A stretch of 24,000 nucleotides of DNA. Origin: Ectobacillus antri. GTDB lineage: Bacteria; Bacillota; Bacilli; Bacillales; Bacillaceae_G. Below, in pieces: positions 3,951-22,309 of the stretch (the stretch's first letter is position 1; the number at the start of each line of letters is the position of its first letter). The DNA lies in assembly GCF_003852715.1 (NCBI RefSeq), contig NZ_RIAV01000002.1, positions 304,296 to 328,295 on the forward strand. The letters run 5' to 3'. The translations under genes and the position numbers were made by a program. The notes beneath the pieces were generated by a model. It ran no database searches and had not been told where the DNA came from. It saw nothing but the letters and a program-made list of their open reading frames with translations.

Positions 3951-4652
3951 GTGGCATTGCTCGGAACATTAGTAAACGGAGTTGCAATTATTATTGGTAG
4001 TTTGTTCGGATTGGTATTACGTAATATTTCAGAGCGAATGAAGGCAACTGTTATGCAAGGAATTGGATTGGCTGTTCTCATTTTAGGTGTCGGAATGGGT
4101 CTGAAAAGCGAGCAATTTCTTATCGTTATTAGTAGTATTGCCATTGGCTCTGCCATTGGAGAATGGTGGAATTTAGAAGAGAAATTAAATAAGTTAGGTA
4201 TATGGATTGAAAAGCGCGTGGGTGCGAAAGAAAAAGGAAGTATTGCCCGGGGATTCGTCACAGCAACGCTTGTATATGTAGTGGGAGCTATGGCGATTGT
4301 AGGCGCATTAGATAGTGGTTTACGCCATGATCATACTGTCTTATTTACAAAAGCCATGCTTGATGGCATTTCTGCTATTATTTTTACGTCTGCGCTTGGT
4401 ATCGGTGTTATGCTATCAGCAATTCCTGTGATTTTATATCAAGGTTTCATTGCCTTATTCGCCACACAAATTCAAGCGTTTGTACCAGAGGTGCTAATGG
4501 ATGCAATCATTTTGGAGATTACAGCTGTTGGAGGAATTATGATTGTGGCCATTGGCTTAAATATGTTAGAAGTTGTGAAGGTTCGTGTGGCGAATATGCT
4601 ACCGAGTTTGCTCATTGCGATTCTATTAGTTACAATTGTTAGTTTATTTTAG
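3951..4652 (+). CDS. DUF554 family membrane protein (YdfK/YqgA-like)
   Basis: 233 aa. The N-terminus MALLGTLVNGVAIIIGSLFG is typical of DUF554 (E. coli YqgA, B. subtilis YdfK). Multiple TM segments. GTG start preceded by GAAAAGGGGA. Confidence 0.75.
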   Translation: MALLGTLVNGVAIIIGSLFGLVLRNISERMKATVMQGIGLAVLILGVGMGLKSEQFLIVISSIAIGSAIGEWWNLEEKLNKLGIWIEKRVGAKEKGSIARGFVTATLVYVVGAMAIVGALDSGLRHDHTVLFTKAMLDGISAIIFTSALGIGVMLSAIPVILYQGFIALFATQIQAFVPEVLMDAIILEITAVGGIMIVAIGLNMLEVVKVRVANMLPSLLIAILLVTIVSLF

Positions 4653-4659
4653 AAAGAGG

Positions 4660-4689
4660 GTGTCCCGTAGTACGGGGCATCTTTTTTTG
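4660..4689 (+). terminator. Rho-independent terminator
   Basis: CCCGTA pairs with TACGGG, flanked by G/C and followed by TCTTTTTTT. Confidence 0.7.
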
Positions 4690-4907
4690 CTAACGAGTAA
4701 GCACAAATAAAAAGCAATATTCTTGTGGATGGGATAAACAATGTAGGGCTATATGTACAGTTTAAGAGATGCTCGTTCCGAGTCTGAATACATACATCTT
4801 ACGAGTCACTCTAATCTTTTTGTTCGTTCTGCTGTTTATGTGGAAAACGCAATGAAATTAACCAATACCTTATATAAATTATAGTCTGGGAATTAACATT
4901 ATATGGA

Positions 4908-4957
4908 TTGACATGGTTTTAGTAAAAATGTTAACCTTTTATTATAAAAGGTTAACA
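4908..4957 (+). promoter_or_regulatory. bio promoter with BirA operator (bioO)
   Basis: TTGACA at 4908-4913. A perfect 29-bp palindrome TGTTAACCTTTTAT-t-ATAAAAGGTTAACA occupies 4929-4957, of the TGTTAAC-N15-GTTAACA form known for Firmicute BirA sites. It overlaps the -10 region just upstream of bioA. Confidence 0.8.
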
Positions 4958-4972
4958 AAAGGGGCTGAGATT

Positions 4973-8191
<3,219 letters not shown>

Positions 8192-10718: not shown

Positions 10719-11201
10719 TTATATTGTTACAGCAATTGCTTTAAGTTCTCTGTTTAAGTTAGCCATTTCAATAGCGGCAACAGCTGATTCCCACCCTTTG
10801 TTGCCGGCTTTTGTGCCTGCGCGTTCAATCGCTTGTTCAATTGTCTCCGTTGTGACTACCCCGAAAATAATTGGTATATCCGTTTGCATAGACACGGCGG
10901 CAACGCCTTTTGCAACTTCATTACATACGTAATCATAATGCGTCGTAGCGCCGCGAATGACAGTTCCGAGTGTAATAACCGCATCATATTTGCCGCTCGT
11001 CGCTAATTTTTTCGCGATAAGCGGAATTTCAAATGCCCCAGGTACCCAAGCAATATCAATATCCGTTTCTTCAACGCCGTGACGCTTTAAAGCGTCTGTG
11101 GCGCCGCCAAGTAGCTTGCTAGTAATAAATTCATTAAAGCGAGATACAACAATCGCAACTTTTAAACCTGTTCCAACTAAATGACCTTCAAATATCATCA
11201 T
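10719..11201 (-). CDS. ribH: 6,7-dimethyl-8-ribityllumazine synthase
   Basis: The sequence closely resembles Bacillus RibH (e.g. [29 protein letters not shown]). Confidence 0.95.
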
Positions 11202-14135: not shown

Positions 14136-14572
14136 AAGACCACCTTCCCGTTAAAATAAAAAGCCCCTAAGGAATGTCCTTAGGGGCTTGAGAAGTGTGT
14201 TTTCAGAAATAGGAGAAAAGCGTACAACAAATAAGCCGATTATATCTGCGTTTTTTTGCAGACAATCAGTGCTGTGTCTCTCTATAAATACAAGTACGAT
14301 GTTCATATAGCAGTCATGACCACACAAAAAGAAACACTGTACAAACATACCCTACTAAAGATAGAAATGTTTAGCTTGTATTTATGTAAAAAGGCAGACT
14401 TCTCCTATAAAATTGAAAACAGAATCCTTCTCCCATCCAGACTATACTGTCGGTCCCGGATTTGCACCAGGTCCACCGCCGAAGCGGGTCACGGACTAAG
14501 AAGCAAAAGCTTCATCACCGCCGGTTGGGAATTTCACCCGACCCCGAAGGATATTGTTTGCTTGTTATTATA
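14136..14572 (-). promoter_or_regulatory. FMN riboswitch (RFN element) leader of the rib operon, with promoter and terminator
   Basis: The minus-strand aptamer (+14423-14554) reads CCTTCGGGGTCGGGTGAAATTCCCAACCGGCGGT...GTCCGTGACCCG...GGACCGACAGTATAGTCTGGATGGGAGAAGG. This is near-identical in its conserved cores to the B. subtilis ribD RFN. An extended -10 TGaTATAAT lies at +14567-14575. The terminator AGCCCCTAAGGA/TCCTTAGGGGCT (+14162-14189) has a U-tract just before the ribD RBS. Confidence 0.93.
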
Positions 14573-14725
14573 TCATAAAAAAATAGAATGAACAGAAAAA
14601 AGTATAATAATCTGAAAGTTTATATGCAGCTGCTCTTATGGAAAAAACTGATAGTATTAATTGACAAATAATAGATGTTTAGGTCATAGTGAATAGCAGA
14701 AAAGTGTGAAGAAAGAGGTAGATTT

Positions 14726-15109
14726 ATGAAATATATGGTAGTTGGTATAGCTGGCGCCGTTGGAGCGTTGCTACGATATGCACTAAGCTTGTATGTACAT
14801 ATACCTTGGCTGTTCGGCTTTCCTGTCGCAACATGGGTTGTGAATATGAGTGGAAGCTTTCTGCTGGCATGGCTTACAGCCCGAATATTTGAGCGACCAG
14901 ATATACATCCATATTTTGCACCCGCTGTTGGAACAGGTCTAGTGGGCTCATTTACAACGTTTTCGACTTTTAGTATGGAAGTAGTTACTTTATGGCAAAA
15001 TCAAGCATATTTATCAATGGGGATATATATGACAATGAGTGCATGGGGCGGGTTTTATATGGCTTGGCTCGGTTTTTATGTCGGGAAAAAAGAGATGGCT
15101 GTGTCATGA
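14726..15109 (+). CDS. crcB: Fluoride ion channel CrcB/FluC, subunit 1
   Basis: 127 aa, 4 TM, with the CrcB signature GSFTTFSTF. RBS AAGAGG. Confidence 0.9.
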   Translation: MKYMVVGIAGAVGALLRYALSLYVHIPWLFGFPVATWVVNMSGSFLLAWLTARIFERPDIHPYFAPAVGTGLVGSFTTFSTFSMEVVTLWQNQAYLSMGIYMTMSAWGGFYMAWLGFYVGKKEMAVS

Positions 15110-15456
15110 ACATACTGTTAGTAGCACTTGGGGGAAGTCTGGGAGCCGTTTTGCGATTTATGATAAGTAACGTAATTCTTGCAAGGTCTCGTTCTCATTT
15201 TCCCTACGGAACTTTAATTGTAAATTTTCTTGGTTCATTTCTACTGGGGATACTATTGTCTTATGGGGTACAAGAAAAGGAGCGCTTATTATTGGCGGTA
15301 GGGTTTATGGGGGCATTTACGACGTTTTCAACGTTTCAAGTTGAGTGTGTTAGGTTGTATCGAGAGAAACAATATAGAGTTGTATCATGGTATATTCTGA
15401 GTAGTTATATACTAGGCATCGGTGCAACATATTTCGGTTTTTATGTCGCGCATTAA
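15106..15456 (+). CDS. crcB: Fluoride ion channel CrcB/FluC, subunit 2
   Basis: MNILLVALGGSLGAVLRF N-terminus and GAFTTFSTF motif. ATG 15106 overlaps the upstream TGA (ATGA). The ORF-track start at 14992 lies inside the first crcB. Confidence 0.9.
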   Translation: MNILLVALGGSLGAVLRFMISNVILARSRSHFPYGTLIVNFLGSFLLGILLSYGVQEKERLLLAVGFMGAFTTFSTFQVECVRLYREKQYRVVSWYILSSYILGIGATYFGFYVAH

Positions 15457-17240: not shown

Positions 17241-17422
17241 TATATAGGTACAACTAGAAAAACAGACATGGGGTGGGAAAGAAGGACAGGCAATGTATGG
17301 GTGCGGTCAGGGCCTAAGAGATACGTGTGTCAAGTAAGAACATACACACGTAGCGAAGCGTTCTGGAGCTGTGACTTTCTTGCTGTTTCTATGTCGAAAA
17401 ACTATGTAGACTTATATAGTAA
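17241..17422 (+). repeat. Non-coding structured repeat, copy 1
   Basis: Aligns by hand to 19881-20072, with about 20 substitutions over about 165 aligned nt plus two indels. Nested helices: P1 GACAT (17265-17269) with ATGTC (17391-17395). P2 AAGAAGGACAG (17279-17289) with CTGT-ga-CTTTCTT (17369-17381). P3 TACGTGTGT (17322-17330) with ACACACGTA (17344-17352). Confidence 0.8.
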
Positions 17423-17969: not shown

Positions 17970-18005
17970 GTATAAATATATAGATACAAAAATTGCTAGC
18001 CAAAG

Positions 18006-19880: not shown

Positions 19881-20072
19881 ATATATTAAGTGCAACTAGA
19901 AAAAACGACATTCTTTATTGGGTGGGAAAGAAGAATAGGGAATATATGGTTATGGTCAGGGCTTAAGAGATACGCGTGTCAAGTAAGAGCATACACACGT
20001 AGCGAGGTGTTTGAGAGCTATGATTTTCTTGCTGTTTATATGTCGAAAAAATTATGTAGACTTATATAGTAA
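19881..20072 (+). repeat. Non-coding structured repeat, copy 2
   Basis: Direct-orientation homolog of 17241-17422. P1 CGACAT (19906-19911) with ATGTCG (20040-20045). P2 AAGAAGAATAG (19928-19938) with CTAT-ga-TTTTCTT (20018-20030). P3 TACGCGTGT (19971-19979) with ACACACGTA (19993-20001), with one C-A mismatch. Confidence 0.8.
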
Positions 20073-20178
20073 TGTATAGGGAGAAAAGGTGTGTGACATA
20101 TGTTGTACCTGTATCGTTTGATATTCGAGTAGGGATATGGGAAAATGAACATTGATTTGCATAGGGAGAGTGAATAAA

Positions 20179-20512: not shown

Positions 20513-21340
20513 ATGATTCCAACAGTAACATTACATAATGGTGTAAGGATGCCGATTTTGGGTTTAGGTGTTTGGAAGGTTACCGAAAAAGAACAATTAA
20601 AGAACGCTATTAAAGCGGCATTAGATGCCGGATACCGAGCAATTGATACAGCCGCAGTATATGGAAACGAAACCGAGGTTGGGGAAGCCATTCGTGAATC
20701 TGGCGTACCACGTGAGGAATTATTTATTACAACGAAAGTCTGGAATAGTGATCAAGGCTATGAAACCACATTAGCCGCATTTGAAGTGAGTTTACAAAAA
20801 CTTGGTTTGGATTATGTAGATTTATATTTGGTACACTGGCCTGTAAAAGGGAAGTATGTGGATACATATCGTGCTCTTGAAAAGTTATATGAAGATGGAC
20901 GAGTGCGGGCAATCGGAGTGTCGAACTTCCATATTCATCATTTAGAAGATGTAATGACTAATGCAAAAGTGAAACCGATGGTGAATCAAATTGAGTTACA
21001 TCCAAAACTTGCACAAACAGAAATTCGTGCGTTTTGCCGTGAGCATGGTATTGCTGTGGAGGCATGGAGTCCGCTTATGCAGGGCGGTGAAATCTTTGAA
21101 AATGAAGTGATTGCACAGCTTGCCGAAAAATACGGTAAAACACCAGCACAAATCGTACTGCGCTGGGATGTGCAAAGCGGTATCATTACCATTCCAAAAT
21201 CTGTGACACCAGAGCGGATACTAGAAAATAGTCAAATTTTTGACTTTATGATCTCTGATCAAGATATGAAACGAATTGACGCATTAAATGAAAATAAACG
21301 TGTAGGAACAAATCCTGAAAAATATGACACAATGGAATAA
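20513..21340 (+). CDS. Aldo/keto reductase (YtbE/YvgN-like glyoxal/methylglyoxal reductase type)
   Basis: The [23 protein letters not shown]-terminus, the [10 protein letters not shown] and LVHWP motifs and the 275-aa size are typical of the AKR5-like family. ATG 20513 follows AGGAGGG. Confidence 0.85.
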
Positions 21341-21406: not shown

Positions 21407-22309
21407 TTAATCTCTGTGTGCAGTATATATATCTTGCTTCGTAAGCTGCTGTAGTTGTTCGTATTCTGTGGATGTCAACGGGGTACCTAAAAGAACGTTT
21501 TCTTGCACCTGCATCACTGAGCTTGCACCTGGAATCACGGAAGCTACAACAGGTTGATGAAGACAATAGCGTAAAGCTACTTCTCCAACTGATCGATTTC
21601 CAGTTAGGTTGTTGATGTGAGATAGTGTTTCTTGTAATTCTTCAGCGCTATATGATAAATAGCCGGATTCCTTGATTCTTTGCGTACCGCTATTTGTTAA
21701 CAAGCCTTTCGCCAGAGAACCTCGTGCGATTACACTGATGTTATGTTCGGCCAATAGAGGGAACAGTTCTTCAGGGCGGCGGTTGAGCAGGCTGTATTCC
21801 ATTAATACGCTGACAATATTTGAACGCGATACGTATTCTTTTATCACATTTGGACGAATGGAAGAAATACCGTAATAACGAATCCATCCTTCTTCTTGTA
21901 ACTCTTCAAACGCTTCAATCGTTTCATCTATGTAATCTTCAACTGTTCCACCGTGTAGCTGATATAAATCAATATAATCTGTACCTAATCGTTGTAAGCT
22001 ACTCTTCACTTGCTCTTTTATATATGTTTTAGATGGATCCCAGAACCACCCGTTTTTATTTGCAGTCCACCGGTTTCCCACTTTTGTTGCCAATATGATT
22101 TGATCTCGTCTCCCCTTCAAAGCTGTGCCTATAAACTCTTCATTCATGCCGTAATCATATAAATCAGCTGTATCTAAAAAGTTAATGCCTTGTTCAATCG
22201 CCGTATCTATAATACGGATCGCTTTCTGCTTCTCTGTGCCAAGCGACATACAGCCTAATCCAACTTCACTAACCCATAATTCTGATGTGCCGAGCTGTCG
22301 TTTTTGCAT
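21407..22309 (-). CDS. Aldo/keto reductase (YqkF-like oxidoreductase)
   Basis: MQKRQLGTSELWVSEVGLGCMSLG N-terminus, FLDTADLY and YQLH motifs. 300 aa. RBS AAGGAGGA. Confidence 0.85.
   Translation of the reverse strand: MQKRQLGTSELWVSEVGLGCMSLGTEKQKAIRIIDTAIEQGINFLDTADLYDYGMNEEFIGTALKGRRDQIILATKVGNRWTANKNGWFWDPSKTYIKEQVKSSLQRLGTDYIDLYQLHGGTVEDYIDETIEAFEELQEEGWIRYYGISSIRPNVIKEYVSRSNIVSVLMEYSLLNRRPEELFPLLAEHNISVIARGSLAKGLLTNSGTQRIKESGYLSYSAEELQETLSHINNLTGNRSVGEVALRYCLHQPVVASVIPGASSVMQVQENVLLGTPLTSTEYEQLQQLTKQDIYTAHRD

Follow-up and report, generated by a model that had tools for sequence, protein, structure and literature searches.

A probable MITE-like family of small foldback insertions in two sister species, Ectobacillus antri and Ectobacillus sp. 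JY-23

Bacterial MITEs are described in general terms as small intergenic elements that lack a transposase gene, carry terminal inverted repeats and can form an RNA stem-loop (PMC3184786). In the Bacillus cereus group, the bcr1-3 repeats are MITE-like sequences of ~150 nt with an intergenic and non-conserved genomic distribution; they form an extended RNA hairpin or cruciform, display compensatory changes together with a variable loss of stability between copies, and are often co-transcribed within UTRs (PMC3184786, PMC6542083, PMC3446304). The bcr1 repeat is flanked by 5-bp direct repeats with a TTTAT motif (PMC3184786, PMC6542083) and folds into two independent stem-loops (PMC3184786), and plasmid copies exist for bcr1, 4, 6, 10, 13, 16 and 18 (PMC6542083). 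The bcr elements have been described as confined to the B. cereus group. The PATEs derived from IS200/IS605 are not known to generate a target-site duplication, insert beside a short motif and rely on single-strand hairpins, and IS608 targets TTAC without duplication.

Here we analyze a repeated intergenic element in a stretch of 24,000 nt of Ectobacillus antri DNA (hereafter, the window), for which a preliminary description, made from the letters alone, had put forward a structured RNA or foldback element in two copies whose helices are kept by compensatory substitutions. A single sister genome, that of Ectobacillus sp. JY-23, corrects the apparent "compensatory" riboswitch candidate to a piece of inserted DNA. 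Our results indicate that the element probably belongs to a small family of non-autonomous, MITE-like foldback insertions of ~165-190 nt shared by E. antri and JY-23. The foldback half of the original proposal is thereby upheld by the insertions, the shared termini and the complementary arms of the element, whereas an RNA of the riboswitch or sRNA kind is left unsupported because the orthologous loci are empty, the downstream genes are unrelated, the old copy decays neutrally and the proposed structure brings no gain in covariance model (CM) score.

The two direct repeats reported in the preliminary description, here copies 1 and 2, are present in the window (Table 1), with the correction that the final 4 nt assigned to each of them (GTAA) are a shared flank lying outside the element. 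The copies are 86% identical over 134 nt without gaps and 83% identical over 187-191 nt (E ~1e-50). Their alignment contains 24 substitutions, 17 of which are transitions, and three indels, one of 7 nt and two of 1 nt; an earlier hand count had given the same 7-nt indel, about 20 substitutions and one 1-nt indel. The 7-nt segment, TCTTTAT, is also found in the terminus of a member specific to JY-23 (see below), and we therefore consider it ancestral and deleted from copy 1. Copy 2 is polymorphic at position 20038, which is A in the window and in two JGI metagenome contigs and C in the NCBI E. antri genome, where G-C pairing at this point of the P2 stem is regained with the C.

The element is non-coding. 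Copies 1 and 2 differ by a frameshift, and the majority of their substitutions alter an amino acid in the open frame. A word-indexed search of 5.8 billion proteins returned no homologue of the element ORFs, and a HMMER search of 1.84 billion representative proteins returned one marginal and irrelevant match to an element ORF. We also considered and rejected a small-protein reading of the element, the sole open frame of which lacks an RBS, is not kept between copies and has no homologue.

Table 1. Coordinates of the element copies, their parts and adjacent features. Positions are those of the window unless a JY-23 locus is named.
Feature	Position	Strand	Remarks
Copy 1 of the foldback element	17241..17418	+	178 nt; 7-nt deletion after GACAT is derived
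Copy 2 of the foldback element	19882..20068	+	187 nt; ancestral TCTTTAT segment retained
Copy 3, old and strongly diverged	4694..4876	+	Recognizable from 4698; ends in CTTATATA at 4876
5' terminus	17241..17257	+	TATATAGGTACAACTAG; imperfect pairing with 17402-17418; most widely shared part of the family
3' terminus	17402..17418	+	CTATGTAGACTTATATA
5' arm of P2	17270..17289	+	Purine-rich GGGGTGGGAAAGAAGGACAG; pairs with 17369-17390; contains G17285 and C17287
3' arm of P2	17369..17390	+	CTGTGACTTTCTTGCTGTTTCT; carries the GA bulge
P3 hairpin, apex	17322..17351	+	ACGTGTGT / ACACACGT
GTAA flank, target site and not element	17419..17422	+	Directly 3' of copy 1; again at 20069-20072 after copy 2
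Outward sigma-A-like match, 3' end of copy 2 and flank	20043-20070	+	TCGAAA-N16-TATAGT; consensus match only
Outward sigma-A-like match, JY-23-specific member	L002 ~4440-4475	-	TTGAAC-N16-TATAGT; consensus match only
Promoter-like site	20118..20146	+	TTGATA-N17-GAAAAT with TG; downstream of copy 2; kept in the JY-23 empty site; consensus match only
Intrinsic terminator of the DUF554 gene	4657..4688	+	Directly 5' of copy 3; 97.5% conserved in JY-23

A JGI metagenome contig matches the window without any difference, and 6 of the 6,432 window bases compared at locus L001 differ from the E. antri assembly GCA_029623795.1. In JY-23, the gene order is the same as in the window and the RHH protein is 92% identical. 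The spacer between the hydrolase and RHH genes, which harbors copy 1, spans 268 bp in JY-23 versus 450 bp in the window, and the spacer between the nucleotidase and DUF3886 genes, which harbors copy 2, spans 262 bp versus 447 bp. The flanks at both sites are 81-90% identical between JY-23 and the window, the alignment gaps coincide with the element, and the empty-site junctions GTAACTCA and GTAGTGTA are retained in JY-23. Both sites are likewise empty in E. ponti, in strain sgz5001026 and in two metagenomic relatives. Since the sites are empty in JY-23 and in these relatives, parsimony places the entry of both copies in the E. antri lineage. The comparison shows that copies 1 and 2 were inserted in this lineage into two distinct intergenic regions, each located between divergently transcribed genes.

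Copies 1 and 2 lie only 2.6 kb apart and in the same orientation, as would be expected if a local segmental duplication, or gene conversion between adjacent intergenic regions, had generated them with no mobile element involved. We find this explanation scarcely credible: the similarity ends exactly at the limits of the element, beyond which the flanks are unrelated, further members are found at a distance of 12.5 kb and in non-orthologous positions of JY-23, and both sites are precisely empty in the latter.

The element had been said to occur twice, which turns out to be an undercount. A third, diverged copy (copy 3; Table 1) was detected with nhmmer using a model of the two copies (E 4.9e-5) and with a sequence-only CM (27.5 bits, E 2.6e-7), and shares with copies 1 and 2 the segments ATTCTT, TGGATGGGA, AATGTAGGG, TTTAAGAGAT and CTGCTGTTTATGTGGAAAA, as well as the terminal CTTATATA. 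An ortholog of copy 3 is found in the same DUF554-bioA spacer of JY-23 (L012 ~10748-10914), where an independent two-copy profile recovers it with E 1.8e-7, and copy 3 hence predates the split between E. antri and JY-23, the only two genomes among the relatives compared in which it is found. Since its arrival before the species split, copy 3 has been decaying. The two orthologs are 80.8% identical; the 5' half, with a 7-nt indel inside P2, is 71.3% identical, and the 3' half 89.5%. The intergenic flanks neighboring copy 3 are 80.6-97.5% identical between E. antri and JY-23, and the ortholog pair is thus no better conserved than neutral flanks, showing no purifying selection. The apparent core of the element, TTTAAGAGATGC, reads CTCAAAAGACAC in the JY-23 ortholog, and the fold z-scores for copy 3 are +0.5 and +1.5.

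A further member is specific to JY-23 (L002 4440-4603, minus strand). It is located between the convergent nucleotidase and RHH genes and begins at the T-run of a terminator. Its first 29-35 nt (TATATAAGTACAACTAGAAAAACAGACATTCTTT; L002 4570-4603, minus strand) are 96% identical to the terminus of the window copies, its interior is no closer to copies 1 and 2 than shuffled sequences are, and yet no other member forms so stable a foldback (z -4.6). In the window, only its last ~35 nt can be aligned (17970-18005). A possible relic of ~75 nt, weakly resembling the 5' arm (E ~0.03), lies upstream of crcB in JY-23 alone (L002 1221-1282, plus strand) and is absent from the equivalent region of the window (~14620-14660). 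We found no family member in ~73 kb from four more distant relatives, and no further copy in 8 kb of added host sequence. Overall, the 32 kb of E. antri sequence covered contain three copies and the 29 kb of JY-23 contain two or three; the family is known from 4-5 loci in ~60 kb of the two genomes. Its members measure 164-190 nt, within the limit of ~400 bp in the generic definition of a MITE.

All members end in CTTATATA or TTTATATA. The terminal inverted repeats are imperfect, with the 5' terminus matching the reverse complement of the 3' terminus at 12 of 17 positions (TATATAGGTACAACTAG and CTATGTAGACTTATATA, respectively) and GACAT pairing with ATGTC. Presence of the element varies between the two genomes in both directions: copies 1 and 2 are missing in JY-23, and the JY-23-specific member is not in E. 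antri. The insertions are flanked by AAAAAC and GTAACT (copy 1), TTTAGA and GTAATG (copy 2), AACGAG and AATTAT (copy 3) and GTTTTT and GTTATA (JY-23-specific member). No direct repeat of at least 3 bp is apparent at any of these four independent junction pairs; the TATATA ends would mask a 2-bp duplication of TA, and the empty-site junctions of JY-23 read GG and AAAA, not TA. The motif directly abutting the insertion is GTAA in copies 1 and 2, GTTA in the JY-23-specific member and AATT in copy 3, which on the minus strand read TTAC, TTAC, TAAC and AATT across the four junctions. The gene tables of the examined loci list no transposase, and no parent IS with termini like those of the element was encountered.

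The short motifs next to the two young insertions (GTAA, or TTAC on the minus strand) and next to the JY-23-specific member (GTTA, or TAAC), together with the lack of a visible target-site duplication, bring to mind a non-autonomous derivative of the IS200/IS605 type, akin to PATEs, which would move as single-stranded DNA and insert by a short motif without duplication; the strand-specific hairpin potential of the element, discussed below, would also suit a single-stranded intermediate. We nonetheless judge a derivation of this sort to be quite unlikely. Copy 3 abuts AATT, and the motif is drawn from only four junctions; a TTAC target would imply that the minus strand is the active one, yet it is the plus strand that folds; and the folds contain no local subterminal hairpins separate from one another, the two ends of the element pairing instead with each other, while neither tnpA nor tnpB is present in the loci examined. 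A foldback insertion family, as favored here, would be mobilized in trans by an enzyme recognizing the shared termini and/or the single-stranded hairpin.

Every pairing detail listed in the preliminary description is confirmed in the sequence. The two double changes in P2, which turn G17285-C17375 into A-T and C17287-G17371 into T-A, are found where they had been reported, copies 1 and 2 have the same GA bulge, the sixth P1 pair of copy 2 (CGACAT/ATGTCG) can be read directly, and G.T appositions are visible in both copies. Owing to these appositions, the plus strand folds far better than the minus strand, with minimum free energies (MFE) of -47.5 versus -30.4 kcal/mol for copy 1 and -32.6 versus -21.1 kcal/mol for copy 2. 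As evidence of structure, the compensatory substitutions fall within chance expectation. When the 24 observed substitutions are scattered at random along the element, the probability of obtaining at least two compensated pairs is P=0.12 for the helices originally proposed and P=0.23 for the full fold. On a fold containing the proposed helices, the changes in copy 2 compensate each other in 2 pairs, are one-sided but compatible in 7 and leave 3-6 pairs broken, among them a C.A mismatch in P3. The stability of copy 1 relative to shuffled sequences is moderate (z -2.2 to -2.6) and that of copy 2 is no better than that of shuffles (z +0.3 to +0.5). The nested architecture attributed to both copies is not shared either, for the MFE structure of copy 2 is a different one. 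The structural evidence from copies 1 and 2 alone is therefore weak.

To assess pairing across the family, four members were aligned by sequence only, and slid partners and shuffles were used as controls. In this alignment, 81.5% of the cells in the originally proposed helices are standard pairs, versus 32-55% when the partners are slid. Two-sided changes with pairing kept are observed at six pairs, all of them in P2, where 86% of the cells are paired; shuffles yield 2.4 +/- 1.2 two-sided pairs, and six are reached in 3 of 500. A structure-fitted alignment of five members, which is biased by construction, gives 83.9% paired cells and 19 such pairs. The terminal stem is paired in 86-94% of the cells across members. 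Preservation is poor in P3 (73%) and in the inner terminal stem, at 65-73% for the two. In the sequence-only alignment, no helix other than P2 retains its pairing across members by means of two-sided changes.

Folding is also strand-biased throughout the family. In each of the five members, the plus strand has the more stable fold, with an advantage of 4-17 kcal/mol, and contains 6-11 G.U pairs versus 3-5 on the minus strand. We considered local GC skew as the sole cause of the G.U asymmetry and discarded it; the skew of the element is +0.29 to +0.39, versus 0.07-0.17 in the background. Local mutational skew is not the whole explanation, because the JY-23-specific member, oriented the other way on the chromosome, is biased in the same manner. 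The asymmetry was perhaps inherited from one founder, in which case it should be counted as one or a few events, and not as five. The family thus conserves a foldback, manifested in arm-to-arm pairing in P2 and in a folding advantage of the plus strand.

Several lines of evidence bear on whether this foldback is a matter of RNA. A covariance model built from copies 1 and 2 with the originally proposed structure was compared with the same model devoid of structure, and on the diverged members it scored 35.3 versus 37.8, 34.8 versus 34.4 and 10.7 versus 27.5 bits. The P1/P2/P3 structure adds no CM score on these members. The RNAalifold consensus of four members reaches only -2.5 kcal/mol, and three of the five members fold no better than their shuffles. 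Between copies 1 and 2, substitutions affect 6 of 67 unpaired and 18 of 120 paired positions, so that the unpaired segments are the more conserved ones. The latter pattern would be in keeping with a family of structured non-coding RNAs, acting as sRNAs or in cis, in which a plus-strand hairpin is selected at the RNA level and the spread of the DNA is secondary; the same could be said of the plus-strand bias, which extends to the oppositely oriented member of JY-23, and of P2 pairing being kept through two-sided changes to an extent that few shuffles attain. We consider such an RNA family unlikely. None of its members possesses a promoter and a terminator of its own, and both copy 3 and the JY-23-specific member are placed just after terminators. 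The copy 3 orthologs are conserved no better than neutral flanks, and the apparent core has diverged between them. Structure adds nothing to the CM score, the consensus fold is weak, and a single founder sequence could have passed on the strand asymmetry, which would then count as one event. A related and doubtful possibility is that the G.U-rich hairpin is selected as a single-stranded form, either because a functional plus-strand RNA is carried on selfish DNA or because the element is a foldback of a novel kind, transposed as single-stranded DNA without duplication and by no known transposase family.

Copies 1, 2 and 3 are each upstream of a co-directional gene, copies 1 and 2 at 110-120 nt from the start codon, a position from which a riboswitch or leader could act in cis on the downstream gene. 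A cis-acting role of this type is very improbable. The genes in question encode an RHH regulator (copy 1), a DUF3886 protein and an aldo/keto reductase (copy 2) and BioA (copy 3), which are functionally unrelated, and the JY-23 orthologs do without the element at the sites of copies 1 and 2. Within a divergent spacer, moreover, an insertion in either orientation is "upstream of a gene", and the JY-23-specific member is enclosed by convergent genes. Downstream of copy 2 there is a conserved promoter-like site (Table 1), so that this copy would precede the DUF3886 promoter and not form part of the leader. Copy 3 is in turn located between the DUF554 terminator and the bio promoter with its putative BirA-type operator (4908-4957). 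No expression platform, in the form of a terminator or an RBS-sequestering stem, is associated with the element. The earlier assertion that it contains no known riboswitch or sRNA core agrees with the Rfam search of copies 1 and 2, which is empty even at E<=10.

Other features of the window were recorded in the course of this analysis. The segment at 4908-4957 (plus strand), just upstream of bioA, comprises a TTGACA -35-like hexamer and, after it, the perfect inverted repeat TGTTAACC-N13-GGTTAACA, which resembles a biotin operator of the BirA type in its sequence and has been conserved in JY-23 too; the true start of the ORF annotated at 4913-6340 is probably further downstream. An FMN riboswitch (RF00050, 112.7 bits) at 14421-14555 (minus strand) precedes the ribD-ribE-ribBA-ribH operon and is the sole Rfam match in the window. 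A pair of crcB genes (fluoride channels) is found at 14726-15456, and the upstream 14556-14725 segment (plus strand) contains no detectable fluoride riboswitch, there being no Rfam match at E<=1. Finally, a 48-nt inverted repeat with 73% complementarity (20789-20836 and 21953-22000) is contained in two convergent aldo/keto reductase genes; it is explained by the paralogy of their coding sequences and is no structural element.

Database searches revealed no relatives of the element. Rfam returned no match at any member, whether the whole window was scanned at the gathering score or four sub-regions were scanned at E<=1-10, and the weak matches beside the JY-23-specific member derive from the terminator hairpin. 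Exact 20-nt patterns for the core (GGTCAGGGCNTAAGAGATACG) and the terminus (GTRCAACTAGAAAAANNGACAT) had zero occurrences in 185,579 species genomes, a collection without E. antri and JY-23, and the core, the terminus and a third exact pattern had no matches in viral contigs. In metagenomes, the exact patterns produced two TARA matches that extend over only 22-30 nt and are attributable to chance. Since the collections lack E. antri and JY-23, where the pattern does occur (loci L002 and L010), these zeros mean that the element is not found elsewhere in them, and not that it is single-copy in its host. A blastn search in distant mode yielded no match to the element in 72,556 PLSDB plasmids, including carriers of seven bcr families. 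The preliminary description had contemplated a match to a described MITE or bcr-type repeat; the behavior of the element is indeed of the MITE/bcr type, whereas these searches show no sequence similarity to a described family. Given that no similarity to described families is detectable, we take the family to be new, and it is probably undescribed and restricted to a small clade, that of Ectobacillus.

Taken as a foldback insertion, each element has the form of an imperfect long hairpin in which the termini, beginning and ending in TATATA, pair together; the 5' arm, rich in purines, is complementary to a 3' arm rich in pyrimidines, and one strand has many G.T contacts. Read-through from neighboring promoters may lead to co-transcription of the element, which would then form a hairpin in the RNA. 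Effects on neighboring genes, be it through outward promoter-like sequences (TCGAAA/TTGAAC-N15-16-TATAGT) or through transcript stability, would be incidental and not a form of conserved regulation; the total number of outward promoter-like sites in the region is not above chance. With copies inserted into the promoter regions of an RHH regulator, an aldo/keto reductase operon and the biotin operon, the element may alter expression between strains, and it could serve as a strain marker. If the family is undescribed, as it appears to be, this is the first repeat of its kind reported for Ectobacillus. The lack of a visible target-site duplication, combined with the single-strand folding bias, is the one feature that might lead to a new mechanism of transposition.

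The comparison with described systems places the element among small non-autonomous repeats. In common with PATEs, it exhibits no visible target-site duplication. It departs from them in that its ends pair mutually, with no separate subterminal hairpins, in that the flanking motif varies (GTAA, GTAA, GTTA, AATT) and in that the folding strand is opposite to the one predicted by the TTAC motif. Like the Correia/NEMIS elements of Neisseria, the pneumococcal RUP and the enterobacterial ERIC sequences, it is shorter than 200 bp and intergenic, has terminal inverted repeats and no transposase gene, can fold into a long stem-loop, and varies in presence between relatives. Those families have clear target-site duplications, and several have a parent IS, neither of which was found for the Ectobacillus element, known here from only 4-5 loci. 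With respect to the bcr repeats, the comparison by way of plasmids covered the seven families with plasmid copies and revealed no similarity. The Ectobacillus element differs from bcr1 in having no 5-bp TTTAT direct repeats at any junction and in forming one long nested hairpin, as opposed to two stem-loops. Of the systems considered, bcr1-3 are nevertheless its nearest analogues: the Ectobacillus element, too, is intergenic, non-coding, variably located and hairpin-forming, and it resides in a related lineage of the Bacillaceae.
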